Shown piece by piece: positions 4,925 through 36,177 of a stretch of 36,177 nucleotides of DNA (its first letter is position 1; every line of letters starts with the position of its first letter). The stretch lies in the NCBI GenBank assembly GCA_002269645.1, contig NIVC01004749.1:1-36177 (forward strand). Reading direction: 5' to 3'. This DNA comes from Macrostomum lignano. Taxonomy: Eukaryota. A program made the translations under genes and the position numbers. The notes beneath the pieces are model-generated. The model had not been told where the DNA came from. It ran no database searches and worked only from the letters and a program-made list of their open reading frames with translations.

Positions 4925-7395
4925 GCTAAAGCTTCTCACCTGGAAGATTAACACCGCCGATTGAACTCTAGCCAATGATTAAGCATTGTACAACGTAGAG
5001 GCATTGTGCCAAAACGCTGACTGACTGCATCTAACAGACGTCGTTAAGAATAAAGAACGACAAGCTCAAATCCAATGAGCTTCTACATTTACATGATGTT
5101 GTACCGTACTTAATTACTTCATTTTATTAAGAGAGACCCGTGTGTAAATTTTTTTCCTATTTCAACTAGTAGTTCTACAAATCAATAAAATTTCAAATGT
5201 GCGCCGTCAGGACTCCCACTTACATTTACACAAATCCAGTTTCAGGCGTTCGTCAGGTTCCGTCACGTTTGGCTGGGAGCGTGCAGGAGAGATTCTGGTG
5301 TTTTTGTAAAATTAGATCTCTGTTGGCTTACGCTGTGGCAATTTATGTGTGCAGCACTGTATGGAGAGAGGTTTGGAAAGAATAGAGTAATGCAGGCGGG
5401 GGTTTTGAGCTTAAGACCACATAGTGCTGCGCCTTCTCATTGTGTCGAATAAGTCAACGTACAGGGCCGAAAACTCGCTAGTATTCGAATAGCGACAATG
5501 AAAAGGAATGAGTCTGTGAGCCTCTCTGTAGATACACAGCAGAGCTCGGCATTTCGACCGAACTAGCAACAGAGACAAGGCTCACAAAAATCTATCTGGC
5601 AATTGAAGCAAAGCAATTTTTTGTACAGCGGTAAAATTTGGGTAAGCAAAGCACTTAATGAAGTTTTTCAGCAATGTTTGCAAATGCTTTTGGCAACAAT
5701 ACGCTCGTAAGTTTCACTGTCACATTTACTGTAAACACGCACTGCTTCCTACACCGACCTAAGCATTACATTACTGGATTCTCTTAATCCTGAAGTGATC
5801 CACTTTAATTCATTTAGTAATTCACAAAGAGAGCTTTGTTTTGTTATAATCGTTGTATCGTTGTACTGCTGAAAACATTCAGAGCAGTAGAAATGCCAAG
5901 CATTTTTCTCCCTTTTTACCAAGTAATACGTTGAATATTTTAACAGTCTGACGAGTTTGCGACCTGATTTTTACTAGAGGAGTGATGAACTACCTAAGGG
6001 AAATAGTTCCAACATAATTCATTGATCACTCTGTTTTGCGTCACCATTGGTACATCTGCGAGTACACCAGGACACCACATTTGTTTATTAGCTTGTATCT
6101 GTAAAAACAACAAAAAAGCTGCAGGAACTACTCAAGAGGTCCTTGGTAAGCTGTTGGTTCACTAATTTACTTCTAATTGGATCTGCTAGTTTCGGCTGAC
6201 ATCACACAGAAAAAAGACGCATGATCTGGATATCGAAATTCGAATCACAGGTCGGTATCCTAACTGCGGATCAGTTGCACTTAAAATGATAAGTTTTCTA
6301 CAGGCTGTTCGAAATTTTGATCTCTTTAACATGATAGCTTTGTTATTAATTAGATTACTTATACGCTCTTAGACTACAGTTTTGTAGCAGTATGTCTACA
6401 TACAGGCATAGCAAGTTTTAAACGAGTATCAATGTTGCATGTAATGACAAAAATAAACCTTAGCAAATTACACATACGCTCCTACACCTATTTGGGAGTT
6501 TCTGTGGCACAAAGCTTGAGGCTAGCACAGGTTTCTTTAAAACAATCAAAACGGAATGATTTTTTGAAGTCAAAGATCTCTAAATACGAGCGTGCACGCA
6601 AGCATGGGGGCATTGAAACAATTTCATAATATTAAGAGTGTCGCGTCCTGTTTAACCTAATCTTCTAGCGGTCCCTGTATCCACTTTGATTCAAATATTT
6701 GGAAAAGTTCTAAAAGACGGTATATAACTCAATACGTCGATAACTTGTGAAACCTTTTTGCCATTCAGTTTATTGGCCCATTTCTCATTTGGTCCCATGG
6801 TCTCAAGTCGTGGTCAAGATGACACAATCTTGGGAGTCAAGATGAGGTCGGTGCTGACCTTTACAGTGAGATGTAGTTTCGAAAGAGCGGGTCACAACGT
6901 GCTGACGTCGCAGCAAGGTTCAGATTTACCAGCAATCGACGCTTCAGCCACCCGCTTTAACTTTCAAACGCTTCCCAACTCACTTGATCATAGTATCGCC
7001 ATGCACTCCATGAAACACACGAAAGCCTTTGAATTTGAATGGGATGAGAATGAACATATCAAGGCATTGGTATGTTTAATATTAGGTACAGAAAGCTAGA
7101 GTTTCAATATCGAAGCATCTAGACGTTTACTCTCCGGCATTGACGTCTTAGAAATTCTTAATTAAAATATTTTCAAATAAAGCTTCTTTTGAGGTTAATT
7201 GTGTTTCATTTATTGTGAATTGTGACGTTCCCAAATACGAGCGTATGTCTGTGTAGCAAAGTATGAGCGCAGTGAGCAATAAATATCTGATACATGTAAG
7301 AGAAGTGGGGATTTGCAGTAACTAACAGTATGGAAACCATGGACTTTAAATGGGGAAATCGAACGGGCGATCCGATTGGCCCTCGACACGGAGAA

Positions 7396-9056
7396 CTATC
7401 TCGGGAGCTCAGACTGATTCGCGTCTGCGCCGTCTAAACTGCTGTAGGTTTTCCGCACGTCGTCCATCATTAGACCATCGTCTTCGCTGGCAGCCGCTGC
7501 ACCTCTTGCCTCCGCTTTCACTGCCGACCCCTCGATCTCTTCAACAGTCTGGAACAGCGGGCGGCCTTTCGTTTCAAATGGTAAAAGCACAGCGACCACC
7601 GCCGCCAAGAGGGCAACGGCTGCGTAGGTGAACAGCCCGGCCATCATTGAGTAGTCGGGAAGCAGCACCTGGGCAACGAACGGCGTCAGCAGGGCGCCGA
7701 TGCGAGAAGCCGCAAAGCAGACGCCCATGCCGAGAGTGCGGATGGTTGTCGGGTAGGCCTCGTTTGTGTAGACGAAAACGGTAATAAACGCCGCCTGAGA
7801 GCAGCCACGACAGAAGAACAGCAGCGCAGTGAGCAGCTTCTGCGGCATGCAGAACAGCATGCTGACGAACAGGACACACGTGACGCAGGAGTTCGCTGCC
7901 ATCACGGCGCGCCGGCCGCAGACGTCTACGAAGAGGATTATGATGAGGTAGCCAAAGAATTCTCCAAGAGTGGCGAAGGCTGCCGTTGCGTAGTCTGCGC
8001 TGCGCAGTGCCTGGCAGCATCCTACGGTGGATTTTCCGGCAGAGGCGTTGCTGTAGAGACTTAAGTCCTGCAAACACCTGTGCGGCAGGCCTGGAAGCTC
8101 GGTGGTGAGCAGCACCATTCCGTAGTACATGAAACCTCCACAAAACCAAAACACAAGCAGTAGCAGGGTCAACCTGTTGGCGAAGTTCGAAATACTCTCA
8201 GGATATCAAGTCAAACCTTGTACATCAGACACCATTAGTTATATCATCAGCAGAAGCTTACCTAGTTAGTGTGCGATTCGCAAACAGCCCTTCAGATCAG
8301 CTCTGCTCTTTTTTGCAGCAACATCAGTGAGAGGTCCCGTCAGTTCTGACTCTTGTTGCACCTGGCTACTCGATTGAGCTCTGCCAGGGCCTCTTCGGGT
8401 CGGCCCGATGCCAGCAGGAATCTGGGAGACCGAGGCAGCCAGAGAAACATCGGCAACGAAAGAAACAAAGGAATCGAAGTAGCAGCCAGCACCCGTCTCC
8501 ATCCGTCGTGTATCAGCGCTCCATCAGAACCGAGAAACAGCCACGCAATTAAGACCTCTAGCAGGCCGCCAAGCGTCCAAAACGTTAGCATTAAAACTAT
8601 AAATGTTGCTCTGAATTTTGCCGTCAAGAATTCGCCGGTGAGAGTCGACGTCAGCGGGATGAGGCCGCCGATGGCAAACCCGACAAAGCCTCGGAGAGTG
8701 AGAATCCAAGGCAGACTGGGCGACGCGGCTGACACAGCTCCGTAGTAGGCGATCAGGCATGCACTCAGCAGCAGTGCGCTCCACCGGCCGTACCGATCGG
8801 AGATCGCTCCCAGAATCGGAGCGCCGATTATTGTCCCGATGAAGACGCAGGTTGCCAGCCAGGCGATCTGTTGAGACGACAGGTGCCACTGGCACTGCAC
8901 GCTGCGACCGAGAAACGACAGCAGGACCATCTCCATGGCGTCCGCGGCCTGGACGGTGCCGCAGACGGCCACCAGACCGACTTGGAACCATCCGAAGCCG
9001 ATCTTCTCCACGGCAGCGTCTACCGTCAGGCCGCCTCCACATTTGCTTACAGACAT
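7396..9056 (-). CDS. SVOP: SVOP-like MFS transporter, copy B (exons 9056-8262 and 8173-7396) with two 1-nt deletions at the end of exon 1
   Basis: Same motifs as copy A. Intron 8261-8174 (AG|GTAAGC...CAACAG). Deletions near 8349 (AGT CA GAA vs S-P-E) and 8288 (GGC TG TTT vs G-L-F). Exon 2 is intact to TAG 7396. Confidence 0.85.
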
Positions 9057-10526
9057 TGTCTGCCCAGCTCTTTGCCCAAACAGCAATTTTTTGATGCGCC
9101 TAAGTTGTTGTCCGTTTTCAAATCGGTATTTGCTCCGATAAGTGAAGTTGCAATCGAATTAGTTGAAGAATCGGTGGAATCCAATTCTCGAGAAAATGTC
9201 ACCATGTGACAAGAGCGGACTCGAGTAAAACGTGCGGTGGTGTTTTGCCACTCGACAAGTATTGAGGCAGGCTTTTATTCGTATGTTTGCTGGATAGAAA
9301 GCTTGGGTAGCAAGGTGAAGAGTGATGGAAAGACAGAAACAGTCAGTGTGCTCACCCAGTGCTCAGTCTCAATGTACGGGGCTAGGGTCAATTTTCTCTG
9401 CTTGAACAATACGAGCCCGGAAAGGGGCTGACAAATGATGCAGGACAGCTGTGTGCGTTCTCTGTGTCAGCTTTATATACATAGACTTAAAGCATCGCTT
9501 GTGCAAATTCAAGTGAGCAAAAGTGAGCTCCGCGTGTGCAACATGCGGTTTGAAAGGCAACTGGCTGACTTGCACCGAGTGATCGAGAGCCACTGCGAAC
9601 GGTCTTATATTTGGCTGGGTTACCTCCAGCTCGGGAGCACCCAGTCAGCATCTGATGACAGAAGGCACAGCAGTTAACACGAAATATGAGCCTTACAACA
9701 AAATTATGATGACAGCTTTGATAGGTGGTTCCCTGGGCCGATTATCAAACGTTTCGAATTGTGAAAATGTTATAACTATTTTTTACAATGTCTCGTAGAA
9801 CGTACAACACCAATGTTTATGTCTCTGAACATCAAATTACTGGAGGAAGTGACAAGTGATTATCAAAATTATTTTCGGTGCAGGGAAGGCAACAACACAG
9901 CGTTTAAAAGTAAAACAAAAATATTTAACTTATCTATATATTCTAGCTGTGTGTGAAGCCTTGAGACATTGCGTGAGTAGCATAAACACTCAAGTCATAA
10001 TCGAACATAAATAAAGACAATAAGCAAAACAAACAGGACTATGACTAAGGCAAATAATTCCACAGGGACTTAAGGTATTTAGTAGAAGACGCTGCATTCT
10101 GAAATCATGGCAAAATACAGGTTTCTTCTACCGGGAACACATGAAAAGCCTACCTGATGAAAAGATCTTGTGTCTCAGTAGCAAATATTTAAACGTGTCT
10201 TCGAAATTGCCAGGTTAATATATTCGAGCATGAACTATAGAAATGAATTAACAGTCATCAGATGTAACATTCTTTGCAATCCTAGCACTGCTGCAGCCTG
10301 TGACACAAATCTTTTCATCGTTTCACATAAATTATAGAATTCCAACCTCCGTAGTCACGATCTGAGAGCAAAGTGTCCGGCTAACTAATAGTGGTCCTTG
10401 AAGATAGCAACACGAAGATGTCGCTGATCACTTATAACCAATCCTGATATTTCGTATTTTGCACAAAGATTCGCGTGCACCCAGGAGTCAGGAGTGCATG
10501 CAAGCATGTCCTACAGCAGGGCCGCC

Positions 10527-12172
10527 TCAGCCCTGGGACTCCTGAGCGTCCCCACCAGTCACGCTGCTGTACTTCTTGGGATCGCCAGTCATCCGCAGCC
10601 CGTCACCCTCAGTCGGCTCGCCGGCTGGCTTTGAAGACGGCTGCCCAGCGGAAGCCGCTTCGGCAACCTCCTCAACCGTCTGCATCAGAGACCGGCCCTT
10701 CGTGTCGAACGGCATCAGGAGGACGCACACGGTGGTCACGACAGCCATACCGGCGTAGGTGAGCATTGCGGCCATCACTGAGTAGTCGGGCAGCATCACC
10801 TGAGCAACAAAAGGTGACAGCAGGGCGCCGATGCGGGAAGCGGCGCAGCAGACGCCCATGCCGAGAGTGCGGATGGTGGTTGGGTAGGCCTCGTTCGTGA
10901 AGATGTAGATCGCCGTGAAGGCGGAGGCTGCGCAGCTGCGCGCAAAGAAGAGCAAGACGGCCAGCAGCTTCGGCGGCATGCAGAACAGCATGCAGACGAG
11001 CAGGACGCTGAGCACCCCCGTATTGGACGCGATCACGGCCCGCCTGCCGCAGGTATCAATGAACAGAATGATGATCAGGTAGCCAAAGAACTCTCCGAGA
11101 GTAGCGAAAGCGGCAGTTGCATAATCTTCGCTGCTCAAAGCCTGGCAGCACTCGGTGCTGGACTTGTCGGACGAGGCCGCGCTCATCTGGTGCAGGTTCT
11201 GCAGGCACCTGTGCGGCTGGCCGGGCAGCTCTGTGCTCAGCAGCACCAGGCCGTAGTAGAGGAATCCACCTCCAATCCAGTTCACAATGGATAGTAGGGT
11301 GAGTCTGGAATTGTCATTTTGAGCATCGGTCAGAAATGGTCAATCAGTGCTTTTAGGACAGCATCTGCGACTTACCTGGTCATGGTCGGGTTGGCGAACA
11401 GGCCCTTCAGGCTGGCCCGCTCACCCCTGGCCGCGGTGTTGCTGAGAGGTCCCGTCAGTTCCGGCCTCTTGTTGCTCCTGGCTGCTCGATTGAGCTGCGT
11501 CAGGGCCTCTTCGGGTCGGCCGGATGCCAGCAGGAATCTGGGCGACCGAGGCAGCCAGAAGAACATCGGCAGGATGAGAAACAGCGGCACGGAGGTGCCG
11601 GCCAACATAAACCGCCATCCGTTGGGTTTCAGGGTGCCGTCGGAGCCCAGTGACAGCCAGGCTATCAGGACCTCGAAAAGGCCGCCCAGCGTCCAGAAGG
11701 ACATCATGACGATGAGGAAGGATGCTCGGAATTTTACTGGGAGAAACTCGCCGGTGAGGGTCGACGTCAGCGGGATGAGGCCGCCGATGGCGAACCCGAC
11801 GAAGCCTCGGAGAGTGAGAATCCAAGGCAGACTGGGCGACGCGGCTGACAGAGCTCCGTAGTAGGCGATCAGGCATGCGCTCAGCAGCAGTGCGTTCCAC
11901 CGGCCGTACCGATCGGAGATCGCTCCCAGAATCGGAGCTCCGATCATTGTCCCGATGAAGACGCAGGTTGCCAGCCAGGCGATCTGTTGAGACGACAGGT
12001 GCCACTGGCACTGCACGCTGCGACCGAGAAACGACAGCAGGACCATCTCCATGGCGTCCGCGGCCTGGACGGTGCCGCAGACGGCCACCAGGCCGATCTG
12101 AAACCGGCCGAAGCCGATCTGTTCCACGGCGGCGTCTATCGTGAGTCCTCCGCCTTTGCTGCTCTCAGACAT
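10527..12172 (-). CDS. SVOP: SVOP-like MFS transporter, copy C, intact, 524 aa (exons 12172-11376 and 11304-10527)
   Basis: 797+778 nt = 525 codons including TGA. Intron 11375-11305 (AG|GTAAGT...TTCCAG) is at the same position and phase as in copies A and B. SVOP-family motifs as above. Confidence 0.92.
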
Positions 12173-14813: not shown

Positions 14814-16988
14814 GGCGAGATCAGATTGTAAGTGCGGCGATAAAACAATACAACGCACCCGATGTGCAGTCTATGGGCCAAGTGGCTTCCACACAGCAGT
14901 TTCTAAATAAAAATCTTCCAATCAAAAAAGTCAGACAATAATCGTTACTTGCTTACTAACCGCAGTAGCCTGTTAAGCCTATTGATGCCGAAGCAGTTTG
15001 AGCTTTAACAATATTGTCGTGCTTCTTGTGAAATCGGGGGGTTTGGGCGAAAGCAAGGAGGGCGGGTGTGAGCACAAGTCATATTCCGACAAAAGGTGTA
15101 CTTATGGGTGCATGTAGCAACACGAGAAGCAGCTGTGAGTCCACCTTGTAGCCTGGGGGTTCATCCTCTGAGCAGCTAAAAATAGCATAACTCATCTGTC
15201 GTTCTTGACTGGCAGGCATAGAAGAAAAAGTGCAATTTGGCTTCAGTAGAACGGGCAGCAACCGTTTTATGCATAGGTTGATGAAGCGCAGTTGACGTCA
15301 AGGACTGCTAAACGAACTGAACAAGTATGGGCGCAGACTGGGCAGTTTCTCAAGGCTTTCTGTGATCCCGTTCAAGAAAAAAATCTCTCTAATTAGAACG
15401 GAACCTGATGCTTTCAAACAGAGCCTGAACACTCGAACGACCCACGCTGGCTATAGAGATTTTGTATGTTCTCAGGAGTCCACTGGGGGAATGGGAAGGA
15501 TTGCCGTAAGTGCTGGTTGTGGGACGGTGTCGCGTTGGCGCCAGGGTGCCCGCAGCCCCTCCTGCAATTACTATCAATAAAAGCGTAGAATGGGGGTTTC
15601 AGAGCTGGAAAGAGGATTGGGGCACAGCACCTCTGGATTGCCTCTCGAGATTTGCGACAAGAGAATCGCTGCATCGCCGCGCCGGCCCGGCCCATCCAAG
15701 CGACCTGGTGGACTCCAGCTGGCCACATTATCAGCATCGAGTCGTACTTCCCACGACCGATGCAGGAGCTGCTGACGTCGTCGCAGGCCCCCTACAGGCA
15801 AGGACGGCGCGACCGACGTTTTTTAGAAGCAGGGGGCTGTGTGCACCCTGGCGCACTTTGAGCGACATTGTCACACAACCGGCGAGAGGCATTACTGCCC
15901 ATTCCGCCGACTCCCCTGAGCAGGCACACAAGCGCGCGGATACGTACGCAGTCATACGCACAGGCACACACTCACACAGGAGTGTACAGCGGCCCTAACT
16001 TATCGTTAAGGCAAGTACACTTCACTGTGCCTTGGGGGTTGGTTAATTGCAAGTCGAGATTCCAGTTTAGCTCCAAATTAATGTGACTGAACGTCGAATC
16101 GAGCCTGAGCCGTTGGCACACCAGAGCGCCGCTCTGGACCACTGGGCTGCTGAGAGTAGGGTGAATAGATTGTGGACAGACGAGTAAAGGGTAAAAATAA
16201 TTGGTAGTTCCTGCGGTTTTGTCAAATAAGAAGCAGTTCTACTTGAAGCGTTTACTATGGCTAACATGTTTCGTTACTTTTTACTCACAGTAGACTGCAG
16301 ACATAATGTAATTATAATTTGCATAATACCGTGTGAAATTGCACCCGTTGTTGCAATCGCAATAGCTGGTTTTGTACGGAAATCGTAAGACAGAAACTAG
16401 CAATAGCCAGATAAAAAAAGAAGTTGAGAAACTCGGGCAAAACTGAAGCCAAGCCAGCAGAATTAAGAAATATTGCACAACCGGGCCTCCTCAGTGACGA
16501 CCACTGAAAACAATCACGCAGTGGATCTGCGTTCGGCCTTGCGGGACAGCACCAGTGTTCTAAAAATAGAACTCTACTAGTGACGGCTAGCCCTAAAATA
16601 TTGCCAAGTAATGCTGCGCACCGATACAGCCCGCAGCCAAACTGGATTCTCGTCCCTCTCCCCTCCACAAGCATAAGCTGGAAACCAGATAGAAAAGACC
16701 CGGTGCACTTGTACTTGCATTTTTACTGCTCACACACGAGGCCCTGTGGAATCGTAGGAGAAGCGTTGCAGTAAGCCGAGAGTACTGTAGTTTTCCGTTA
16801 TTTGGTCAGACTGCGCTGCAACTGCAATTTTTACCATGCAGCCGGCCATGACTCTGCGGTAATTATTGTACTTCTGCATGTTTGACATTCTGAAGTACAA
16901 TCACAACTTCAGTTGCCATTTCAATAATGATAGATTTGGGATAAATTTGTTCTCAAAGCAGTTTAGAAGCGGATTACGAATTTTGTTT

Positions 16989-17529
16989 GATAATCAGGGG
17001 AATTGTGAGTGATAATCAGGGGAAATGTGAGTGATAGTCAGGGGAATTGTGAGTGATGATCAGGGGAAATGTGAGTGATAATCAGGGGAATTGTGGGCGA
17101 TAATCAGGGGAAGTGTGAGTGATAATCAGGGGAATCGTGAATGATAATCGAGGGAATTGTGAGTGATAATCAGGGGAATTGTGAGTGATAATCAGGGGAA
17201 TCGTGTATGATAATCAGGGAATTGTGAGTGATAATCAGGGGAATTGTGAGTGATAATCAGGGGAATTGTGAGTGATAATCAGGGGAATCGTGAATGATAA
17301 TCAGGGGCATTGTGAGTGATAATCAGGGGAATCGTGAATGATAATCAGGGGCATTGTGGGTGATAATCGAGGGAATCGTTAATGATAATCAGGGGCATTG
17401 TGAGTGATAATCAGGGGCATTGTAGGTGATAATCAGGAGAATTGTGAGTGATAATCAGGGAATTGTGAGTGATAATCAGGGGAATTGTGAGTGATAATCA
17501 GGGGAATCGTGAATGATAATCAGGGGAAT
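16989..17529. repeat. 22-bp minisatellite (GATAATCAGGGGAATTGTGAGT), ~24 copies
   Basis: GATAATCAGG recurs at 16989, 17011 and onward with a 21-22 bp period. Confidence 0.95.
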
Positions 17530-18204: not shown

Positions 18205-21200
18205 TCACAGCTTGTCCAGGAAGCGGTCCAGCGGCGGGATGCCCTCCTGCAGGCCCTTGCGCTTGCGGGTGTCCAGCACGATCTGGCTGGGCTTGGTGCC
18301 GGCGGTCAGGGGGTCGCCAGGCATCACCTGCCAGTGGTCGAACACGCACTGCGGGAAGGCCTGGCCGCCTGTGGCCTGGCGCAGGTCCGAGGTGAAGCCG
18401 AAGCTCTCGTTAACCGGCAGGTGGGCCTTCACGATGAACATCGGGGTGCCGGACACCTGGCAGAGGGAGGTTGTGGAGGGGATCGATTGGAAATCGGAAT
18501 AGGACGCCACTAACAAAAAATTGCACTCTCAGTCTGAGGGGCGTTTCAATAGCTCGATACTTCACAAGCTCGAAACTGCTCAAGCTCGATACTTCACAAG
18601 CTCGAAACTGCTCAAGCTCGATACTTCACAAGCTCGAAACTGCACAAGCTCGATACTTCACAAGCTCGAAACTGCTGAAGCTCGATACTTCACAAGCTCG
18701 AAACTTCACAAGCTCGAAACTGCTGAAGCTCGATACTTCACAAGCTCGAAACTGCTGAAGCTCGATACTTCACAAGCTCGATACTGCTCAAGCTCGAAAT
18801 TGCTGAAGGTCGATACTTCACAAGCTCGATACTTCACAAGCTCGAAACTGCTCAAGCTCGAAACTGCTCAAGCTTTAAACTACTCAAGCTCGAAACTGCT
18901 CAAGCTCGAAACTGCTCAAGCTTTAAACTACTCAAGCTCGAAACTGCTCAAGCTCGAAACTTCAGATTGTCCAAAATTAAAAAAAAACGACCAGTCACTT
19001 TGCCAAGCTCACAACGAATTAGATGATATGAAGATTAACGAGAAGATCCATTAACAAGTGTGAAGAGTCTCACCTGCTCCTCGGAGAACACAACACCGCG
19101 CCGACGGTTCAGCACACCGTAGATGCCGCCAACAGCGTTCTCCGGGCACTGGATCTCGCACAGGTACACCGGCTCTAGCAGGGCCGGCTCCGCGGTCAGC
19201 ACGGCGGCGTAGAAGCAGCGCCGAGCAGTCGGGATGATCTGGCCGCCGCCGCGATGGATAGCGTCGGTGTGCAGCGTCACGTCGCAGATGTCAAAGCGGC
19301 AGCCGCGCATGTTCTCGTCGCACAAAACGCCCTCCTTGGTGGCCCACTGGAAAGCGGCTACAACGCTGTCCTTGATCTCGGCCAGGTACTGCACACCTTT
19401 GGTGACGTCAACAACCAGGTTGGGACCGTTGGTGTCCGGCCCGAAGCACCAGATCTTGCGAGCCTCGGTCACGTCCCAGCTGTAGGTGTCGGCAAGGATG
19501 CGGCCGCGGTCCTTCGCGTCCTGGCGGGGCGCGATCTTGCCATCGTCAATGTCCTTGCAGAGATCTTCGTCCAGAGGGCGGGCCTTCATGTACAGCCGGT
19601 TGTGCTTGTTGGGCGACTTTGACAGCACGGTCTAGAGGGGTCAAGAGACGACGGTGATTGATATGCTGACTTAGTATTCAATGCCTATGTTCTCAGTAGC
19701 CAATGCTTATATACTCAGTAGCCAATGCCCATGTACTCAGTAGCTAATGCTTATATACTCAGTAGCCAATGCCCATGTACTCAGTAGCTAATGCTCATGT
19801 ACTCAGTAGCTAATGCTTATGTACTCAGTAGCTAATGCTTATATACTCAGTAGCCAATGCCTTTGTTCTCAGTAGCCAATGCTCATGTACTCAGTAGCCA
19901 ATGCCTATGTTCTCAGTAGCCAATGCTCATGTACTCAGTAGCCAATGCCCATGTACTCAGTAGCTAATGCTTATGTACTCAGTAGCTAATGCCCATGTAC
20001 TCAGTAGCTAATGCTCATGTACTCAGTAGCTAATGCTCATGTACTCAGTAGCTAATGCTGACAGTCAGTAGCTAATTCTGACAGTCAGTAGCTAATGGTC
20101 TAACTACTACACAGAAGATCTAGGCCACTAACCTGGTTGCTCTCGTTAGTGACAGTCTCGCGGTAAGACACAACGGGATCACCGGTCTTGATCGGGATCT
20201 GGGCGTGATCCTCCTCCAGATCTTTCAGACAGATCTCCAGGTGCAGCTCGCCAGCGCCAGCAACGATGTGCTCGCCGGACTCCTCGTTGTAGATCTGCAC
20301 CATGGGGTCGGACTTGGCCAGGCGCTTCAGACCCTCGACCAGCTTCGGCAGGTCGGACGGATTCTTGCAGTCGACGGCGACGCGAACGACGGGCGACACG
20401 CTGAACTTCATGACGCGCATGTTGTGCGCAGCGGCGTAGGTGGTGATGGTGCCGGTCTTCACCAGGAACTGGTCGACGCCGACGAGACCGCAGATGTTGC
20501 CGCAAGGTACATCCTCGATAGGCTCGGTGTAGCGGCCCATCATGAGGATGGTGCGCTGGATGCTCTTCTCAAACAGGTCATCCTTTTTGCCCGGCGCGAA
20601 GTTGGGGCCCATGATTCGCACCTTGGTGGCGCTCACAACTCCGGAGAACACCCGACCGAAGGCGTAGAATCGGCCCTTATCGGAGGTCGGCACCATCTTC
20701 GAGATGTACATCATGAGCGGCGCCTTCGGATCGCATGTCTTGATGCCGATGGCGGCCTCGTCATCGTGGGGTCCCTCGTACAGCAGCTCCATGCGGTAGC
20801 GCTGGGAGGTCACGGGAGACGGCAGGTGGATGGCGATCATCTGCAGCAGGGTGTCGCCAGCTGGGAGCCACTTGCGCATCATCACCTTGAGCAGCGGCTT
20901 GCCGCTCAGCTCGCGCTCCTCAGCGTCCAGCTTGATGTTGAGCTTTTCGGCCAGCTTCAGGCCCTCCTCGATAGGCTTGTCCATCACTACTTCGAACATC
21001 TGTGGAGCAGATGGCACAAAGTGAATTTTCGTTATCGCGGAGAAGCAATCCCAGAGAACTGACCGAAACCAAGCAATAAAAAAGTATTCGCAAAGCTCAA
21101 ACTAACAATAGCTACCTGCTGTGAATCAGACAGACTGAATCCTCATTAAGTAAGATTTCTCTCAGCCTGGGGCAGTATAAGGTCATCATGCGCAGGTTTT

Positions 21201-22288
21201 ACAGACGGAGCGAGAAAATGAAAACTTTCGATAATAAATAATACAAAGTAATCTCCGCCAGAAAAACAAGATCATCAGGTTCAGTATAAAGTGATCATAC
21301 TGTCAAGCCATTAACAATAATATGAAAGGTGTACTGAAGCAACACTTGCCTGGTAGATGGGGTTCAGCACGAACTGGATAAAGCCCCGGACGCACTTGTC
21401 GCTCTCCTGAGTCTTAACCCACTTCCTCGTCTCCGTGTTGTAGAAGTTGTCGCCCCACAGTCGCTTCATCAGCTTCTCCGGTTCGATCTTGAACTTGGAG
21501 GCGTAGATCTCGGCGAACTGCTTCAGCGTGAAGGCCCAAGCGTGCAGGCCGGAGCCGAAGCCGACGGTGCCCTTCTCCGGCGACACGAAGATGTTGCCCA
21601 TGGCACCGCCCTCTTCGCCGAACTGGGCGATGATCACGTTGATGTTCTCCACGACTCGCTGGAACTGCTGGTACAGATCCTCCTTGCCCTTCTTAAGCGT
21701 CAGCAGCGAGCAGTCCATTTTGTTCATGAACAGCACTGGCTTGATGCGCTCGGCGATGGCCTGCCGAAGCACCGTCTCCGTCTGCACGCACACGCCGGAG
21801 TTGCAGTCCACGACGACCAGGGCGCCGTCGGTGACACGCAGAGCGGCCGTCACCTGCAGGAGTTGAAGTTATCAGGTTTCGTGGTCCAACGAGGTGAAAG
21901 GAAAATGAAATAGCCAATTTACCTCCGAGCTGAAATCCACGTGGCCAGGCGAGTCGATGAGGTTGATCAGGAAGCCGCACTCGTCAGTTCCGTCGCTGCG
22001 CTTCGACACCTCCTGCAGGGTCTTGACAAAATTAACGTCAGCCTCACCCAGCTCGTAGTACATGCTCACGGCAGTCGACTTGATGGTGATGCACCGCTCC
22101 TGCTCATCCTTTCGCGTGTCCGTGAACCTGGTCTCGCCAGCCCTGGCCGAGGCGATGATGCCGGCCTTGGACAGCAGCGAGTCAGTCAGCGTCGACTTGC
22201 CGTGGTCGACGTGGGCGATGACGGACATGTTGCGGATGTTCCGCTTGTTGTCCATCATGGAGCGAATTTGGCCAACAGTAAAGTTCAC
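18205..22288 (-). CDS. EEF2: Eukaryotic elongation factor 2, coding exons 22288-21923, 21853-21350, 20999-20133, 19631-19074, 18456-18205 (~849 aa with the initiator Met)
   Basis: [16 protein letters not shown] (G1), [11 protein letters not shown] (Thr56 region), DSPGH, NKMD, diphthamide motif [19 protein letters not shown] and C-terminal FLDKL. All exons phase 0 and collinear with known eEF2. Confidence 0.98.
18551..18966. repeat. 16-bp minisatellite with higher-order structure, 26 monomers, in the last eEF2 intron
   Basis: Monomers AGCTCGATACTTCACA (A), AGCTCGAAACTGCTCA (B) and AGCTTTAAACTACTCA (C); 26x16 = 416 bp. Confidence 0.95.
19668..20097. repeat. 22-bp minisatellite (TACTCAGTAGCTAATGCTCATG) filling most of eEF2 intron 20132-19632
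   Basis: CTCAGTAGC recurs at 19692, 19714 and onward; ~19 copies. Confidence 0.95.
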
Positions 22289-24680: not shown

Positions 24681-27600
24681 CCACAGCCAGGAAGACGGTA
24701 GAATCCTCGGAATTTTCCGGCGCAAATCAGCAATTTGCCGGCGCACGGCGCACACTTCACTGCGCCGCGCGCATGGGCTCGGCGCATCGGCGCATGGCTC
24801 GGTGCATCGGTGCATGGCTCGGCGCATGGCGCACAAGGTACGTCAGTGTACGTGACAATATAATAATGAATAATAAAAAAACGTATATTAAATGTCAATC
24901 AATCAATAAAATAAACGATGGTCGATACGATAGTCGTTATTTCCAATGTTGTTTCGGGTGTGTATAAAAGCTGGCACTGGCACATTGGACACATTGGACA
25001 CCCCTTTTTATAACAAAATTAGATATGAAAATGCAGAATAAACTTGCGGAGATACTTTTAAATAATTTAAAAAATTGATAATAATAGAAATGACATCCTT
25101 GCTTTCGTGATAGATGATTTGTTAAATATTCTTTGTATTATCGTTTTTTGTACATGTTTAATTTGGCATTCGATTTTTTAAAATAATCGCACATGCAAAA
25201 ACTGCAGCTTGCAATGCTATTACACTGTGATTTTACTACCCCGAAGGTTCTGTACTACAGGCGTACCGATTTAATGCTAAATATGCCTGATATATGAAAT
25301 GATCAAACTAATAGTCAGAACTCAATTTTCCATAAAATGATGAAGCATTCTGCTCTTATCAAAAAACCACAACTTATTTTGTTAGGATTACTTCATGAAG
25401 AACGAACTTTGGATATTCCAAATTGCAATTATTTCTATATTAAAAAAGTTAATACATTGGCAGATTATTTGATGAAAAAATTGCACCCAAAAAGTTTTTT
25501 TTACTTTGTAAGATGATGATTAAATTAATAATTTCCAAGCTTCTTCTTTTATTAGTTCAATTACTTTTTGTATGATTTCAACCAACAAAAAAAGGAATAG
25601 CTACTCAGTGAAAGTTCAAATTACAGTCTCTTCTTTACATACAATCCTTTTAAGAAAACATTATTATGAATAATTTGCCAAGTCATGATATTTAAGAAAT
25701 TGTGCTAATCATTTAAATTATGAGTTAAAAAATGCAAGCATATAAGTAAAAAATCTACCTCACAGACCAAGAAGTCTTTTTACTGAAAGTTTATATGTGA
25801 CGCTTTGAAAAAACAACATATAAACCATCTTCACATAACATTTATTGTCATTTATTTCAGACCTAAATCCTTTAGCACATAAATATTCTGCACGTATGTT
25901 GCAGGGTATACTTCCTTCTTCTAAAATCCTACAAATGCCACAAAGTTTTAATAGGCAAATTTATTCATATTGTTTATATTAATATTTCTATATTTATGAG
26001 AAGTTTTCCAATAAGAACAAGTTCCCAATCAGTAAAACACTATATTTTAATTCTAATGTCCAAAATTATGGCATTCTAAGGGACCAAGTGATAGGTTTTA
26101 AGCTACTATTAGCACCTGCATGATTTATTTATTTAATACCTACACATTCCTTAATGTCTATAGTTCGCCTAATTGCCTAATTGCTAACCCTAATTCTAGC
26201 CTTCTTGGCTTACAAGTTTGAGTCTTCACAGCATATTATTCAATTCAAGCCCTACTAATTTTATTAGCCTCTCTTAATTTTATAAAATAATAATTTTCTT
26301 TAGTGTAACTGCTCCAAAAATTTCAACTTTAATTTAAGTGGTGTGCCGAAACACCACTTGCACCATTACAGCCGTCTATAATTTTTTGTGCTAATTGGTT
26401 GACCACTTTCAATAATTTTCTTGGGTCAAGAGTGTGATATATGCATATTGCAGCATGAATTTTTTAAAGAATCCCTAATTTTATACAAGGAATCATATAT
26501 ATTTATAGAAAGTTAGCTCTTAGAGTAGAGATAAAGTACATAAGACTATTAATAGCAACTTTTCATACAATTGCTTATGGTAATGATTTCTATTGTTATA
26601 AAGTTACAAATAAATAAAAAGTTACATTGCATTTAAACTGTACTTTATGAGTTGTAAGCCTTTCAACTCAGAGTGCACTTCAATTGCTTTAATATACATT
26701 GCTAGATGTTATTTAGCATTTCTTTGTTATTTATCATTTAACTCATTGCATTGTTTAATTGCTAATTTCATTTGCTCAGCTGCAATATTTATTACTTTTT
26801 TATTAATGCCAATGTTTGTAATACTTTTTCTCCCTATTTTTAGTGTTTGTGGTATTCTTTTGTCAAATTTTAATTTTCCGCTGTATCTATCTTTACAAAA
26901 AATTGTACCTGTAAACTTATGGTTTTTTGCTTACAATGGTACTGTACTAAATTATATTTATTTCCTTGTTAGATTCTCTAAATTGAAAAAGTAATGCACT
27001 GCTTTATTATCATGCATATTGAATATTAAGGATAGTTAGTATTCCTTCCTTGAAAAAGATTCTAGAGTTGGATTCTATTTGATAAGAGAATAAATAATTT
27101 ATTGAGTTTAAATGTTTTTAAAACATTAATTAATTGCATTTTGATGGAAATCACAACTTAAAAAAATATTCGTTTTTTTATTTAAGACACGGGGGATTTT
27201 AAAAATCCATATTAACAGCAAATCAAACATTAACATTATGGGAGAGAGAGAGAGAGAAGGATTAGATTCACTTTCACCATTGCTGTTGATTTATGGAAAG
27301 GCAGTAAACAAGCCAGAGCAGCTGCAAATAGTCAAATATGCCATGTCCGGCAATAAAATTCTGCAACTAGTCTGCTGCTCACTTTTTCCAACGTTTATTG
27401 AGGACAAGAAACGGCATTTAATGTTTCTATGTTTTCTGTAAGTGCACCAACTAGGTAAATGAAAATGACGTACCGAAAGTAGTTCGACAATAAAGCAAGA
27501 TAAGAAATGAATTTAAATGTAGAATAAAACTTGTTGATACTACCAATCTCATGGTTGTTAGAAGTATATGAAAAAGTGCAATTATAAATAAATATTTACA

Positions 27601-28014
27601 TTTTTATTCGAAAGCCAAAGTATATTTATTCAAGCAAAACAACGATCAAAACTCGATTTTTGTTAACATAAGGGGTGTCCAATGTGCCAATGGTGCCCTG
27701 CTTTTATACAGACCCATGTTGTTTCTATTTCAAATTTCATTAATCGACTTAACAAACTTAACAAATTTGCGCCTTTCGCGGCTTTTGTTGCGTCTTTTTG
27801 CTTATATTTTACAAATAGAAGATATGATTGAACTGCTTGAACTTCCATTGATATTGATTCAATTTAGATACTTAATACTTGATGGTGCTTTTTCAAGTGT
27901 ATTTTTCTCGGCGCATGGCGCACAAGTAATTTTTTTTTCTCGGCGCACGCGGCGCACAACAAAAATTTTGATGGATGTTATTCCGGCGCACACGCTGCAC
28001 CTTCCTGACCATGG
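24681..28014. mobile_element. 3.3-kb degenerate DNA transposon with an 8-bp TSD (hAT- or Mutator-like), related to the 589-bp MITE
   Basis: Identical flanking 8-mers TTGACGAC at 24673-24680 and 28015-28022. Ends CCACAGCCAGGAAGACG / CACCTTCCTGACCATGG resemble the MITE TIR (13-14/17). Clusters of GGCGCA subterminal repeats at both ends; AT-rich interior with no long ORF. Confidence 0.8.
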
Positions 28015-31956: not shown

Positions 31957-32226
31957 AGTAGTATATAAAAAGACGCTTCTAGACCCAGAGCACTTTTTTA
32001 ATGACCGTTTTAAGGGTCTAGAGGGGGGACACGGGGGGTAAATAAAAAAACACATCTAAACACCATTAATACATCTAATCACCCATAATCACCCCTAACA
32101 ATAAAAATCATTCCCAACACTTCCAAACACTCCCCAACACCCCCCTCGCGTCCCCCCTCTTAAGACCTTAAAAACGGCCATTAAAATAAGGTCTGATCTG
32201 TAAGCGTCTTTTTCTATACTACTACT
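31957..32226. repeat. Imperfect inverted repeat (~82-86 bp arms) around a 109-nt G-free loop
   Basis: AGTAGTATATAAAAAGACGCTT...GAGGGGGGACACGGGGGG (31957-32038) pairs with CCCCCTCGCGTCCCCCCTC...AAGCGTCTTTTTCTATACTACT (32141-32226). No G on the + strand from 32039 to 32147. Confidence 0.85.
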
Positions 32227-32280
32227 CTATAACCCCTTGCCCGCGCCGCAGGCGCGAAGGGTCTTTTTCTGTTACTAAAA

Positions 32281-32595
32281 ATGACCCGAGTTTACACCTT
32301 TTCTGTTAGTGATACTTTTGAGACTGTTGCTAAAAATGCAGAGATAATAAAACAACATATTTTGAATGGAATAATTGATGAAGTTTATTTAAAATATGAC
32401 GACAAGCATGACCTAAAGCTTTATCCATTAGAGCTAGATGAGATGTATGATTTAGAACAAGAGGGTGAGTTAATATTTCAACTTGGAGATTATTTAAATT
32501 CGGATGATTGGGAGGTTAGATCAACAGATTCCGAATCAACAAATAGTTCATATGAAACCAGTGATTCAGAGAATGAAAGTGAAATTTTTATGTGA
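32281..32595 (+). CDS. Viral hypothetical acidic protein, 104 aa
   Basis: ATG preceded by TAAAA. AT-rich open frame with a D/E/S-rich C-terminus. Confidence 0.65.
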   Translation: MTRVYTFSVSDTFETVAKNAEIIKQHILNGIIDEVYLKYDDKHDLKLYPLELDEMYDLEQEGELIFQLGDYLNSDDWEVRSTDSESTNSSYETSDSENESEIFM

Positions 32596-32611
32596 AAAAA
32601 ATATTTAAAAA

Positions 32612-32836
32612 ATGAACTATTATTCTATAACAGAAACGACGTTTATTATGAAAAATATATATAAAAAAATGAAGGTAAATTATTCCTACATCGGAAATGT
32701 TCCAATTAATGAACTTAATGAAAATTTAAGTTTGATAACAGTTGAACAAATGTCAATAATAATATTAGTAACAATAATAGTAATAATATTGTTTTTGTTT
32801 GTAATAAAAAATTTACTACCATGTTGTCTTAAGTAA
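32612..32836 (+). CDS. Viral small membrane protein, 74 aa, with a C-terminal TM helix followed by PCC
   Basis: MSIIILVTIIVIILFLFVIKNLLPCCLK*. ATG preceded by AAAAA, 16 bp after the previous stop. Confidence 0.55.
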   Translation: MNYYSITETTFIMKNIYKKMKVNYSYIGNVPINELNENLSLITVEQMSIIILVTIIVIILFLFVIKNLLPCCLK

Positions 32837-32846
32837 CTGTTTGAAC

Positions 32847-34452
32847 TTAGTTCGCAGACATTATCTGGTTCTCATAAAAAGAACCCAATATTTCTTCACC
32901 ATCCTTATCAGCAATTATATAGGTTGTAGGATTTGTATTTAAAACTTTACTGATGGTAAATTTCTCACTTATTTTCCAATATCCTTTTCTTCCCTTTTCA
33001 AACTTATCTTTCCATTTATAGATATAAACAGAATCACCAACCTTAAAACCTTTAGTTTTCTTTTTTTCAAAATCTCCAAAAGTAACCCTAACATTTTCAG
33101 GATTGTTATAAGCTTGTTGAGGAGTCATCTTTATCGCCGAATGATATGAATTGTTATAATCTTTCACTACGTCTGGTAATATTTTTACCCATTTTTGGTT
33201 ACCATTAAGACTAAACTGAAACCATAATTTCTTACCTAAAGTTCTATTAAATCTTTCTATTAATGCGTTTTTACTCTCTCCATAAATAGAATAAATTTTA
33301 TTAATATACTCCCCATTCGCGTCCTTTTTCCTTTCTTGTCCTTTTTCAAAATGATACAATTTATACATGTGAGGATTGTAAAATTCTTTTCCTTCGTCAA
33401 CACACAACCTTTCACTTTTTTCTCCAAGACTTCTAAAAGCAGCAGCAACCTCCTCTCCCTTTTTGGATTTTAAAGGAACAGCCCACGCGTATCGAGTAAA
33501 ACCATCTAATATGGTTAAGATATATTTATATCCTCTTTCGTTCGGCATCGACATTAAATCAGCATACCAAATTTCATTCTTTTTGAAGTTCATGATTTTT
33601 CTATAAAATTTAGGTTTTCGATATTCTTTATGAAGAATCTTTGCCTCATCAGAACTTAACCCGCCGCCACTTAACAACAAACACTCAACACAATTATTTC
33701 CATGTTGATTATAATTAATTCCCAAACCAAATTTAACTTTAGACTGCAAGATCTTTTTAACCATCCACCTAGTTAATTTTTGACCTACCGATAATCCCTG
33801 CAAGTTATCTAATCCTTGAATCATTTTTTGATCGGCTTCATGTTTTAATCTTAATGCTTCCTCGGGTGTGTTCTTATCAGCATCTCTGTATGCTAAGTCA
33901 TGATAGTATGCTAACCAATCAATTCCATTTATGGGAATTGAATCGGCTTTTGGGTGTCATCAGGATTTAATCTCAAATCTAAGCGAGTGCCGGGTAGTTT
34001 ACCCTCAATCTTTCGAAAGAGGCTGGAGCACACCTTAAGCGGCGATAATTACCGCCCATCTCCGTCTGCTCTCTGAACCTTCTCCTTATATTTAAAATAC
34101 TTAGGAGCTTGGCTGCGCATTGCCACCGTGTCTTCAAGCTTTTTACCATCGAACCATAGGTTCGCGGACGAAGTCCGATTGGGAAGAGGAGTTACCTCTG
34201 TTCCTTCAAAAGATTTCTCAATTGAAGTGGTACTTGAAGCTGTATGACGGGTTTCACGCAATTTGGAGATGTCGCCACAAATAGTGACTAGCAAGGACAT
34301 TGCCTTCCTCACTCAGGCCACGGGTTAACCTGTGAAGTTCATTGATGGTAGGTGTAGCTCACCCGTATACCTCCCAGTAGTAAATATTGGTGGTAAGCTT
34401 GTTAATCCTTTTTGAACATCTAAAATCCTCCTTCAAATACTATTTGGTTCAT
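32847..34452 (-). CDS. PLA2-like domain fused to a Polinton RVE integrase; exon 1 34452-34328, group I intron, exon 2 33994-32847; two 1-nt indels in the PLA2 part
   Basis: Reconstructed MNQIVFEGGFLDVQKGL...GELHLPSMNFTG|PGTRLDLRL...PINGIDWLAYYHDLAY...HEADQKMI...KVKFGLG carries the HD dyad and Ca loop. It continues into WYADL / LCVDEGKEF / IERFNRTL (DDE) and FKVGDSVYI...GEEILGSFYE. Needs +1 at the A4 run 34422-34425 and +1 near 33952-33954. Confidence 0.85.
33995..34327 (-). ncRNA. Group I self-splicing intron, subgroup IC1, 333 nt, with no internal homing ORF
   Basis: P1 exon CAGGU / IGS GCCUG with U.G; P2.1 GUCAC/GUGGC; P3 CAUCUCC/GGAGAUG; P element AAAUUGCGUGAAAC; P5a with A-rich bulge; Q AAUGCGCAGCCAAGCUCCUAAG; R GUUCAGAGAGCAGAC; S CUUAAGGUGUGCUCC; P7 fully paired; P8 GGCGGU/AUCGCC; P10 with exon-2 CCCGG. 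Removal restores NFTG-PGT. Confidence 0.92.
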
Positions 34453-34936
34453 TTTTAATGTTTAAAAAACATGTTTCTATCAATTTAATAATTTCTAAAT
34501 ATTGGTCACCATATAAAAAATTTAAAGCAAATTCCCCAGTTAACAAGGTAACTCCATTATCAAATACTTTTTGTACGGGGTTTTTAGTAGTATTATTAAT
34601 GCAAATATAATATAAATCAAATTCGGGATTAACATATTTAAATTCTAATAACTTTTGAATATTTCTAAATCGACTTGATGAATTATCTGTGTTATCAGAA
34701 GATTTTAACTCTAACGCAACTTTTCTTTCTGTATGAATTAAATCAATTTTATTTACTTTTTCAAAACCAAAATGTTTAATAGCTAATAATTCATAAAGAG
34801 ATCCAAGTCTCATTTGTATTGTTTTAATACGGTTTGCAATTATTAATTCATCTTGAAATATTTTATTTAGTATTCTGTCAGAACCAACTTTATCATAAAT
34901 AGGCTTACAAAGGTGGTCTTTTATTGTTTCATCCAT
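34433..34936 (-). CDS. PD-(D/E)XK nuclease resembling Eco47II/Sau96I-type restriction endonucleases, 167 aa
   Basis: KTIQMRLGSLYE...KIDL...VALELKSSDNTDNSSS...KLLEFKYVNP...YYICIN gives an E...D...ExK core plus the NT.NSSS motif. Intact ORF; its 3' end overlaps the PLA2 ATG by 20 nt. Confidence 0.7.
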   Translation of the reverse strand: MDETIKDHLCKPIYDKVGSDRILNKIFQDELIIANRIKTIQMRLGSLYELLAIKHFGFEKVNKIDLIHTERKVALELKSSDNTDNSSSRFRNIQKLLEFKYVNPEFDLYYICINNTTKNPVQKVFDNGVTLLTGEFALNFLYGDQYLEIIKLIETCFLNIKNEPNSI

Positions 34937-34964
34937 TTTATAAAAAAATAAATTTAACAATTAA

Positions 34965-35636
34965 TTAAACTCCAGTATGTCCAGCAGCTTTCGCAGCAGC
35001 TAAAACAAGTTTTCGCGGTGTTTTAAATCCATCACCAACAGCTGGTTTGTTATTTATAGAATTAACAATCCATTTATACAAGCTGGTATTTTTAACAGCT
35101 CCTCCTAACTCATCATAAAAAATTCTAGCACTTATTAATTCATCCCTAGTATATAAATCGGGGTTAAATTTTACCCTAGGGTTCGTAATAATATTAAATG
35201 CTCCGCCCAATTCTCTATATAGTTCATTTCGATCTTTAACAACGTTACCAATTCGATAATTACCACCACCTAAATCTGTCACAGCAATACTAGTTGGTGC
35301 AGGTCTCGGATATTGTTCAACTCCACCCCTAATCTCTTCACGTCTAATTTCTGCAACTCTAAATATTGCTTGATCAGTCTCATAAGCAGGCGGCTCATCC
35401 AAAATTTCATCCTCTTTTGGCTCCGTATTTTTAGCAATTTTTTCCAGAAGATCTTTATCTGTTTTTTCTAGTTCACTAATTTTCCCAGTAATAGGATTAA
35501 CAAAAGGAGCAGCAAATCTTTCGCCAGCTAATTGTATTCCTAACTTTCTTTTTTGTAAATTTCTAACAAAATCAGAATATCTTTGCTTCTCTTTATAAAT
35601 CGCTAACTCTCCATCAACGTCCATAAATTGACTCAT
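34965..35636 (-). CDS. Viral hypothetical protein, 223 aa, with a C-terminal LVLAAAKAAGHTGV motif like conserved Polinton-associated proteins
   Basis: Intact AT-rich ORF. The tail resembles the L.LL.AS..AG.T motif of Polinton proteins (recognised by eye). Confidence 0.7.
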   Translation of the reverse strand: MSQFMDVDGELAIYKEKQRYSDFVRNLQKRKLGIQLAGERFAAPFVNPITGKISELEKTDKDLLEKIAKNTEPKEDEILDEPPAYETDQAIFRVAEIRREEIRGGVEQYPRPAPTSIAVTDLGGGNYRIGNVVKDRNELYRELGGAFNIITNPRVKFNPDLYTRDELISARIFYDELGGAVKNTSLYKWIVNSINNKPAVGDGFKTPRKLVLAAAKAAGHTGV

Positions 35637-35670
35637 TTTTTAACATAAAAAACTTTTTTAACTTAAAAAA

Positions 35671-36177
35671 ATGGCTGAAACAAAAACTATGTGGAGTGAT
35701 AAATTTCATTTCAAAAAGCACCGACAGTATATTGATGAGGTCAGAGCAAGAGATTTAAATTATACCCTACCAACAAGTGATAATTCAAATAACTTTACTA
35801 CTGGAACGGTAACTTTTGACATCGGCGCAACCAACACTATATTGGATATGAAAATGCGTTTTCCGCGTTAGATGGTTGTATACTAGAAATGATGGAACTG
35901 CTCTTGCAGCCGGAGATATCGCAGATCGATCCGGAATAATAATAGAAAATGATTGGTTTTATAAATGTTTTCCCAAGCTCAACTAACTGTTAATGGTGCT
36001 GAGGTTGAGACATCATCAAACCCCGCAGAGATTAATGGAGTTTTGAAACATTTAAATTAAATTATACTTATTTATCAAAACAAGTTGGTGATAATGTTGG
36101 GTGGATGCCGGATAAAGGTAAACGGTCAAGCAGTAGTTTTCCTAATGTACAAAACGCAGCTGGTGCAGATACTGCAG
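35671..36177 (+). pseudogene. N-terminal part of a probable major capsid (double jelly-roll) gene with at least 3 frame disruptions, running off the window
   Basis: Pieces NNFTTGTVTFDIG / TRNDGTALAAGD...IENDWFYKCF / SQAQLTVNGAEVETSSNP...LKHLN / NYTY...GWMPD follow the order of Polinton MCP N-terminal motifs. Breaks near 35860-35880, 35970 and 36058. Confidence 0.55.

Follow-up and report, generated by a model that had tools for sequence, protein, structure and literature searches.

A group I intron lineage in a protein gene of Polinton elements from the flatworm Macrostomum lignano and its candidate restriction-like nuclease partner

A 333-nt insert in a viral gene from Macrostomum lignano is, with near certainty, a group I intron of IC1-like structure borne by an integrated, amplified Polinton in a bilaterian genome. 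It was studied in the window, that is, the whole 36,177-nt stretch of contig NIVC01004749.1, and represents one of three intron types (A, B and C) found at one site of a PLA2-integrase gene. Polinton-like viruses integrated in protist nuclei are already on record as bearing group I introns (PMC12220804); the novelty therefore lies in the animal host, the putative nuclease partner and the terminal A of the intron. The result is a multi-copy group I family that inhabits a nuclear protein gene in a laboratory flatworm, outside the places that reviews and a database paper assign to these introns.

A covariance-model scan matched the insert (window 33995-34327, minus strand) to RF00028 with 61.1 bits (E 3.9e-15; cut-off 50 bits) over positions 34004-34337 of the same strand, in agreement with the group I identity proposed in the initial annotation; a faster Rfam pass over the whole window at the gathering threshold had 0 hits, its filter having passed over the intron. 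Because a natural intron-less allele of the window's family (locus L088) reads through the gene, as a continuous PLA2-integrase ORF of 424 aa, the insert is exactly 34327..33995; the coordinates and length first assigned to it thus stand. Its removal restores the gene, as seen from the intron-less alleles L088, L059 and L060. The annotation had placed the intron within a PLA2 reading frame. The site was right, but the gene is a fusion of PLA2 to an rve integrase rather than PLA2 alone, with both PF08398 and PF00665 matching the natural intron-less allele. In the window, the rve integrase scores 32.3 bits against PF00665 (E 1.2e-7), just below the cut-off of 32.6. The integrase part has an internal ATG at 33824 from which it can also be read, and transposition may therefore be independent of splicing. 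The two frameshifts of the window copy, near 34421 and 33950, may reflect decay or sequencing indels.

Table 1. Features of the window, with intron helices from the 5' end, followed by genes and element landmarks
Feature	Position	Strand	Remarks
Type A group I intron (IC1-like, without ORF), 333 nt	33995..34327	-	RF00028 61.1 bits; ends from L088
P1	34314..34332	-	exon CAGGU 34328-34332 pairs with guide GCCUG 34314-34318; U.G at 5' splice site
P2	34290-34313	-	type A intron of the window
P2.1, short	34274-34288	-	P2 and P2.1 together span 34274..34313
P3	34265-34271 with 34057-34063	-	cmscan register; compensatory changes
P4	34255-34260 with 34114-34119	-	cmscan register; compensatory changes
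P5abc	34132..34239	-	A-rich bulge 34139-34144; L5b GAAA 34214-34217; P5c 34185-34199
Optional double hairpin in P5abc	34150-34177	-	missing from L027-L030
P6a/b	34082-34107	-	cmscan register; compensatory changes
P7	GAGCA 34067-34071 / UGCUC 34026-34030	-	guanosine-site G-C pair kept
P8	34041-34056	-	P7/P8 region 34026..34071
P9.0 and P9	33995..34024	-	P9.0 is 34023-34024 with 33996-33997; P9 with GAAA loop; terminal A at 33995
Exon 1, PLA2-integrase gene	34328..34452	-	frameshifted near 34421 in the window copy
Exon 2, remaining parvovirus-type PLA2 fused in frame to rve integrase	32847..33994	-	frameshifted near 33950; internal ATG 33824
Free-standing Eco47II/EcoO109I-like PD-(D/E)XK nuclease, 167 aa	34433..34936	-	overlaps exon 1 start
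223-aa element ORF without Pfam match	34965..35636	-	also in L088
Element end: terminal AGTAGTA motif and internal inverted repeat	31957..32223	.	shared end in other copies
Host EF2 gene, in pieces	19035..22258	-	10 kb from element end

Introns of the IC1 class have a P5abc with an A-rich bulge and a GAAA loop, together with P2 and P2.1, and typically also P9.1/P9.2 and P13. All of the former traits occur in the window intron, whereas the P9.1/P9.2 extension and P13 are missing, with only 8 nt following P9. The complete IC1 core claimed at the outset is therefore too strong a description, and we use the label IC1-like: helices P1 to P9 are present, but P2.1 is short and P10 is weak, with four of five pairs formed by inspection, and is not conserved in the other lineages. 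The same seven pairs make up P1 in types A and B and in a metagenome relative, L095. P7 is paired throughout in the window intron (the unusual GAGCA/UGCUC, with its conserved G-C pair), in type B (GACUU/AAGUC) and in L095 (GACUA/UAGUC). The folding energy of the window intron has a z of -2.6, and an equally good fold arose in 2 of 100 shuffles.

Short G+C-rich double hairpins of about 30 nt come and go among these sequences, as at window 34150-34177, near 1025-1060 of L053, in the cores of L045 and L048 and at the start of exon 1 in L099. They keep the frame in the cases checked and resemble tiny mobile inserts, although none of them came up in a scripted search with strict criteria.

The comparison of intron types indicates selection on the ribozyme structure, as had been suggested from the compensated P7. 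Ten of 54 registered pairs differ between types A and B, eight by two-sided compensatory and two by one-sided changes, and none is non-standard; under a random null the mean was 0.6 two-sided changes, and none of 200,000 draws reached eight. Some circularity attaches to this test, because cmscan and energy folding supplied the pairing registers. The same comparison of type A with L095 gave seven two-sided changes and two non-standard pairs. Moreover, the A and B cores are 82% identical (231/282) as against 48% (31/65) at fourfold sites of the exons, which implies purifying selection, exchange between families, or both. L098 and L099, two further A-ending introns with about 86% identity to that of the window, each add one two-sided change, and P3 runs through the series U-A, U.G and C-G among A-ending copies; one P5 pair is broken in L098. 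To judge from these changes, selection on structure continued while the end was A.

A pattern for the intron 3' end matched the genome at 109 places (types A and B; control 0), and a degenerate search for the uninterrupted site at 31 (reversed control 0). Intron-plus and intron-minus alleles, for which the initial annotation had proposed a search, coexist in related Polintons. Intron-less alleles numbered 19 in family B and a single one, L088, was found in family A. Type B introns measure 836-895 nt and occupy the same codon junction in a second element family, whose protein is 60% identical. Type C (325 nt, 24 genome copies) scores 42.9 bits against the RF00028 cut-off of 50; its P2.1 and P5abc are related to those of type A (L096:205-530, L097), its core is different and looks IE-like, and the whole is possibly a chimeric ribozyme. 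Type C flanks read Gly-Ala plus one extra codon.

The metagenome relative L095, a Polinton-like contig, contains the same intron (80.6 bits) at the same site of the same gene, with a nuclease gene inside. Because so distant a relative shares this arrangement, the intron is, by all appearances, an old resident of the Polinton virus lineage rather than a one-off capture. Of the horizontal acquisition initially proposed, carriage by the virus into the host is retained, the single capture is not, and the search for a donor gave none: the intron core pattern matched six giant-virus loci, with similarity to the window intron over only 25-30 nt, so no donor was identified. Among viral contigs, no relatives of the PLA2-integrase or of the nuclease were confirmed, and the 5' splice-site pattern had 0 matches. 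Four database proteins (P0132, P0162, P0168 and P0171) start at or just before an intron 3' end, suggesting more intron-bearing relatives elsewhere. In the giant-virus contigs L091:1310-2778 and L092:2447-3256, RNA polymerase and capsid genes are interrupted by several consecutive group I introns.

The putative nuclease encoded beside exon 1 resembles type II restriction enzymes. PF09553 (RE_Eco47II) matches 10 of 10 aligned members of its family (best E 4.1e-7), the query itself scoring 20.6 bits, below the cut-off of 25.9. Its structure model (pLDDT 89) aligns with EcoO109I over 165 residues (Z 9.7, rmsd 3.6; next row Z 6.3), and its language-model neighbours are the Eco47II and EcoO109I clusters. 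Residues E49, D65, E76 and K78 are invariant and the catalytic residues intact. EcoO109I recognizes RGGNCCY, and AvaII GGWCC. Eco47II homologues have been assigned GGNCC (PMC10305163). From family and modelled fold, the most likely target of the predicted enzyme is GGNCC or a site derived from that word. No methyltransferase gene was found in 31957-36177 or in the loci read.

A homologue of this nuclease lies inside the intron, at P2.1, in all 28 family-B loci, where it reads on into the core, and likewise inside the L095 intron; the window protein and the intron-encoded homologue are 58-67% identical in near-full-length matches. None of the 30 intron-less loci fetched contains a nuclease homologue. 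In family A, the gene stands upstream of exon 1 in 11 of 30 copies and a different gene in the other 19; in L088 and 19 type-A copies, the upstream gene is HNH-like by eye and has no Pfam match. Since six of nine database relatives end in intron-core-like tails, the position inside the intron looks ancestral. The nuclease tree leaves A, B and P0001-3 without clear order (support for an A+B clade 57/31), and the direction of movement is therefore read from the outgroup layout only, which suggests that the nuclease left the intron. Alleles of one site with the nuclease inside, with the nuclease beside and with no intron offer a momentary view of the acquisition and loss of nucleases by mobile introns. 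The position upstream of exon 1 (window 34433-34936; L088:852-1418) is filled by either an Eco47II-like or a zinc-finger HNH-like gene, each ending in the same overlap with the PLA2 start. At L032:1055-1570 (family B), a perfect 12-bp stem closes the loop with the nuclease ORF, its 3' arm being nuclease coding sequence.

The intron splits Gly-Pro codons in a PLA2 loop that always spell GGNCC, the Eco47II site. This insertion site is the sole GGNCC in the scanned stretches of intron-less L059 and L088, and none of 30 type-A copies has the word at its junctions. In about 8.6 kb of intron-plus element DNA from three lineages (A, B and L095; all of it from regions other than polymerase and capsid), GGNCC occurred 0 times against 8.9 expected (P 1.3e-4). 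It was the most depleted of 256 words (next word, P 0.011), with a P of about 0.03 after correction for 256 words, and had been named beforehand by the Pfam match. The host part of the window has 71 occurrences against 85.9 expected, and the word is not depleted in Polinton-type loci whose PLA2 gene stands apart (observed/expected 8/6.7, 6/6.0 and 7/6.4). Only five occurrences, in four loci, were found across 58 intron-plus loci. Among 120 database homologues, which are non-independent, Gly-Pro outside the matched motif occurred 43 times against 73.5 expected, and Pro-Gly 74 times; some homologues have Gly-Ala in place of the motif Gly-Pro.

We think it somewhat probable that intron and nuclease work as a pair, with the intron masking the one cut site that the PLA2 protein forces on the element. 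On this proposal, the group I intron lineage, which occupies one PLA2-integrase site in multi-copy flatworm Polintons, would be removed from viral mRNA by group I splicing, through the terminal A in type A. The partner nuclease, within the intron (family B, L095) or free-standing and adjacent (11 of 30 family-A copies), would cut GGNCC or a derived site. As a pattern, GGNCC is purged from the tested element DNA except at the protein-forced Gly-Pro codons, where the intron sits and abolishes the site; intron-plus genomes would thereby be immune and intron-less rivals would be cut once. Repair from an intron-plus genome would then spread the intron, or else the rival would be lost, most plausibly between co-replicating viral genomes. 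Use of intron nucleases against competing viruses has been proposed for Bodo saltans virus (PMC5871332), and intron-based competition between co-replicating genomes has been reported for a phage (PMC11620839). Because an enzyme with a 5-bp site would also attack the host's own DNA (71 sites in 32 kb), the nuclease is predicted to be silent in integrated copies or extra-specific; the 19 persisting intron-less B copies fit chromosomal silence or a longer site. Several observations count against the pairing as stated: 16 of 78 type-A copies end in G, those 19 intron-less family-B copies exist beside nuclease-bearing ones, L098 has its broken P5 pair, the query falls below the Pfam cut-off, and 19 of 30 type-A copies are without this nuclease.

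A fuller picture is more doubtful, and we offer it tentatively. An animal DNA virus would possess a methylase-free restriction system, made up of a GGNCC enzyme, a GGNCC purge and a self-splicing intron that masks the forced site; the ribozyme would act on Pol II mRNA in bilaterian nuclei, with a terminal A in one lineage; integrase supply would depend on it; the three intron types would compete, and the nuclease gene would have moved out.

Ordinary homing, by a nuclease that reads a site of 15-25 bp containing GGNCC and cuts rival copies only, would account for several of the same data. The intron-encoded position in family B and L095 is its classic layout, a long site would spare the host, and intron-less B alleles differ from intron-plus flanks at several near bases, yet persist. 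However, long-site homing gives no reason for the purge of GGNCC elsewhere in the element, and the nearest folds are type II restriction enzymes; we regard it as unlikely, if deserving of attention.

Group I splicing of the viral mRNA, a step of the proposed intron-nuclease pairing, would in type A proceed from an unusual end. The last base of the window intron is A (33995) and not G, a point that the initial annotation had missed. Among 100 listed 3' ends, counted by hand, type A ends in A in 62 of 78 and in G in 16, whereas type B ends in G in 22 of 22; the L095 intron also ends in G. To our knowledge, a terminal G is near-universal in group I introns. A terminal A also occurs in the hexacoral mitochondrial intron ND5-717, which undergoes splicing in vivo, albeit at lower efficiency (PMC6545197). 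Of the 30 copies nearest to the window, 25 end in A, and these have both exons open in 18 cases and exon 1 open in 24; across exon 1 and the PLA2 part, A-ending copies show 25 synonymous versus 8 amino-acid variants. From this selection on A-ending copies, we infer that type A is spliced via its terminal A instead of a G. Other possible 3' sites that end in G were discarded on grounds of reading frame. With natural alleles ending in A and in G, the chemistry of the 3' splice site can readily be compared.

The window stretch is contained in 19 sequencing runs from 7 studies, none on record as RNA. Among contigs of four runs on 32700-35700, mostly short and of guessed RNA origin, no joint skipping 33995-34327 was listed, a result that weighs neither way, and one contig spans both unspliced junctions. 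The action of a group I ribozyme on mRNA in a bilaterian cell is directly testable with existing RNA data.

It could also be that the intron lineage is real but its A-ending type dead, the integrase being supplied from the internal start or by other copies. The terminal A, the variant P4, P7 and tetraloop receptor, the ATG at 33824 and the double frameshift of the window copy are in keeping with a dead type. We nevertheless hold this to be improbable in view of the compensatory changes among A-ending copies, the single intron-less family-A allele found against 78 intron-plus ends listed, and an exon 1 that is open in 24 of 25 A-ending copies.

The Polinton context and the integration in a bilaterian genome, both part of the initial annotation, are well supported. 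Positions 20103-20999 are 100% identical to Macrostomum lignano EF2, and a further 39 scored copies have the same element end, near 31957, beyond which they cease to match. Of the terminal repeats, one end was mapped (31957) and the other lies beyond the contig. PF03175 (pPolB) hits lie on the intron's strand, 9-11 kb upstream of it, in at least eight type-A contigs (91 of 974 candidates scored), the window contig ending before that distance. For 18 of 28 family-B introns, a hit to PF21738, the double jelly-roll capsid protein, lies some 3 kb away, and none is listed beside family A (126 of 195 scored). Neither mir-124 nor Pox_A32 had a match in the genome, an outcome that carries no weight. 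A contaminant, such as the virus of a food alga, or a chimeric join in place of host integration, would agree with the low G+C of the element (0.33 versus 0.43-0.60 in host genes), with a contig that ends within the element and with the metagenome relatives. Nevertheless, there are more than 100 copies, some deep inside large contigs (at position 636 kb; in a 1.24-Mb contig), they share an element end with different flanks, and four runs from four studies all cover the stretch, so that contamination, which the annotation had itself considered, is scarcely credible. Spliceosomal removal, via a GT located two bases upstream and an AG close by, could draw on the AG|GT at the 5' end and on copies ending in CAG, but is rejected by frame, its cuts shifting the frame or meeting a stop by inspection, and faces a ribozyme core under compensatory selection; its probability is negligible.

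The intron and its putative partner recall several known systems. Introns of the Polinton-like viruses of Rhodomonas, Paulinella and Desmodesmus likewise match RF00028 and lie in protein genes (309-376 nt), but they are reported only from a few protist groups and lie in another host gene, and the available text of PMC12220804 assigns them no nuclease; the present host is a bilaterian. Nuclear rDNA introns of IC1 type (Tetrahymena type) share the core motifs, P2/P2.1, P5abc and the U.G and G-C pairs (PMC3679873). According to that review, all known nuclear group I introns are in rDNA, whereas the Macrostomum intron is in an mRNA gene, is without P9.1/P9.2 and mostly ends in A. Animal group I introns are listed only for placozoans, corals and sponges, mostly mitochondrial, in the available part of PMC11835236. 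Coral ND5-717 shares the terminal A, but is mitochondrial, obligatory and from a non-bilaterian (PMC6545197). Subscription papers, Tables S11/S12 of PMC12220804 and the PMC11835236 database aside, the full-text literature yielded no account of such introns in the Polintons of animals; none is described in the available text of 10.1101/2023.08.22.554363, PMC11296320 and PMC8502044.

Bodo saltans virus also has introns with and without a nuclease in conserved viral motifs, although its nucleases are HNH as well as GIY-YIG enzymes and it is a cytoplasmic giant virus (PMC5871332). Collaborative homing in phages combines an ORF-less intron with a free-standing nuclease that targets the site of insertion, a proposed step towards the composite intron (PMC3984707); here, by contrast, a single animal genome contains both states, and to judge from the outgroup layout the nuclease departed from the intron. 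The restriction endonucleases of chloroviruses are, similarly, restriction-type nucleases with short sites from a eukaryotic DNA virus, thought to degrade host chromatin during infection, but there a neighbouring methyltransferase protects (PMC7019647), while here site avoidance and the intron apparently do so, with no methyltransferase in the examined stretch. The Macrostomum genome offers a candidate example of a restriction enzyme with a short site that is paired with an intron. Alpha adintoviruses and Polintons share pPolB, the rve integrase and a parvovirus-type PLA2, the latter as a separate PLA2X gene (PMC8502044) and not fused to the integrase as in the Macrostomum element.

Elsewhere in the window, an MFS transporter gene is present three times in tandem at 3244-12172, every copy being split into two pieces. 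Minisatellites lie in or beside EF2 at 16988-17529 (22 nt), 18551-18961 (16 nt) and 19679-20059 (22 nt), and an AT-rich segment at 24979-27697, bounded by 45-nt inverted repeats, is probably a DNA transposon remnant.
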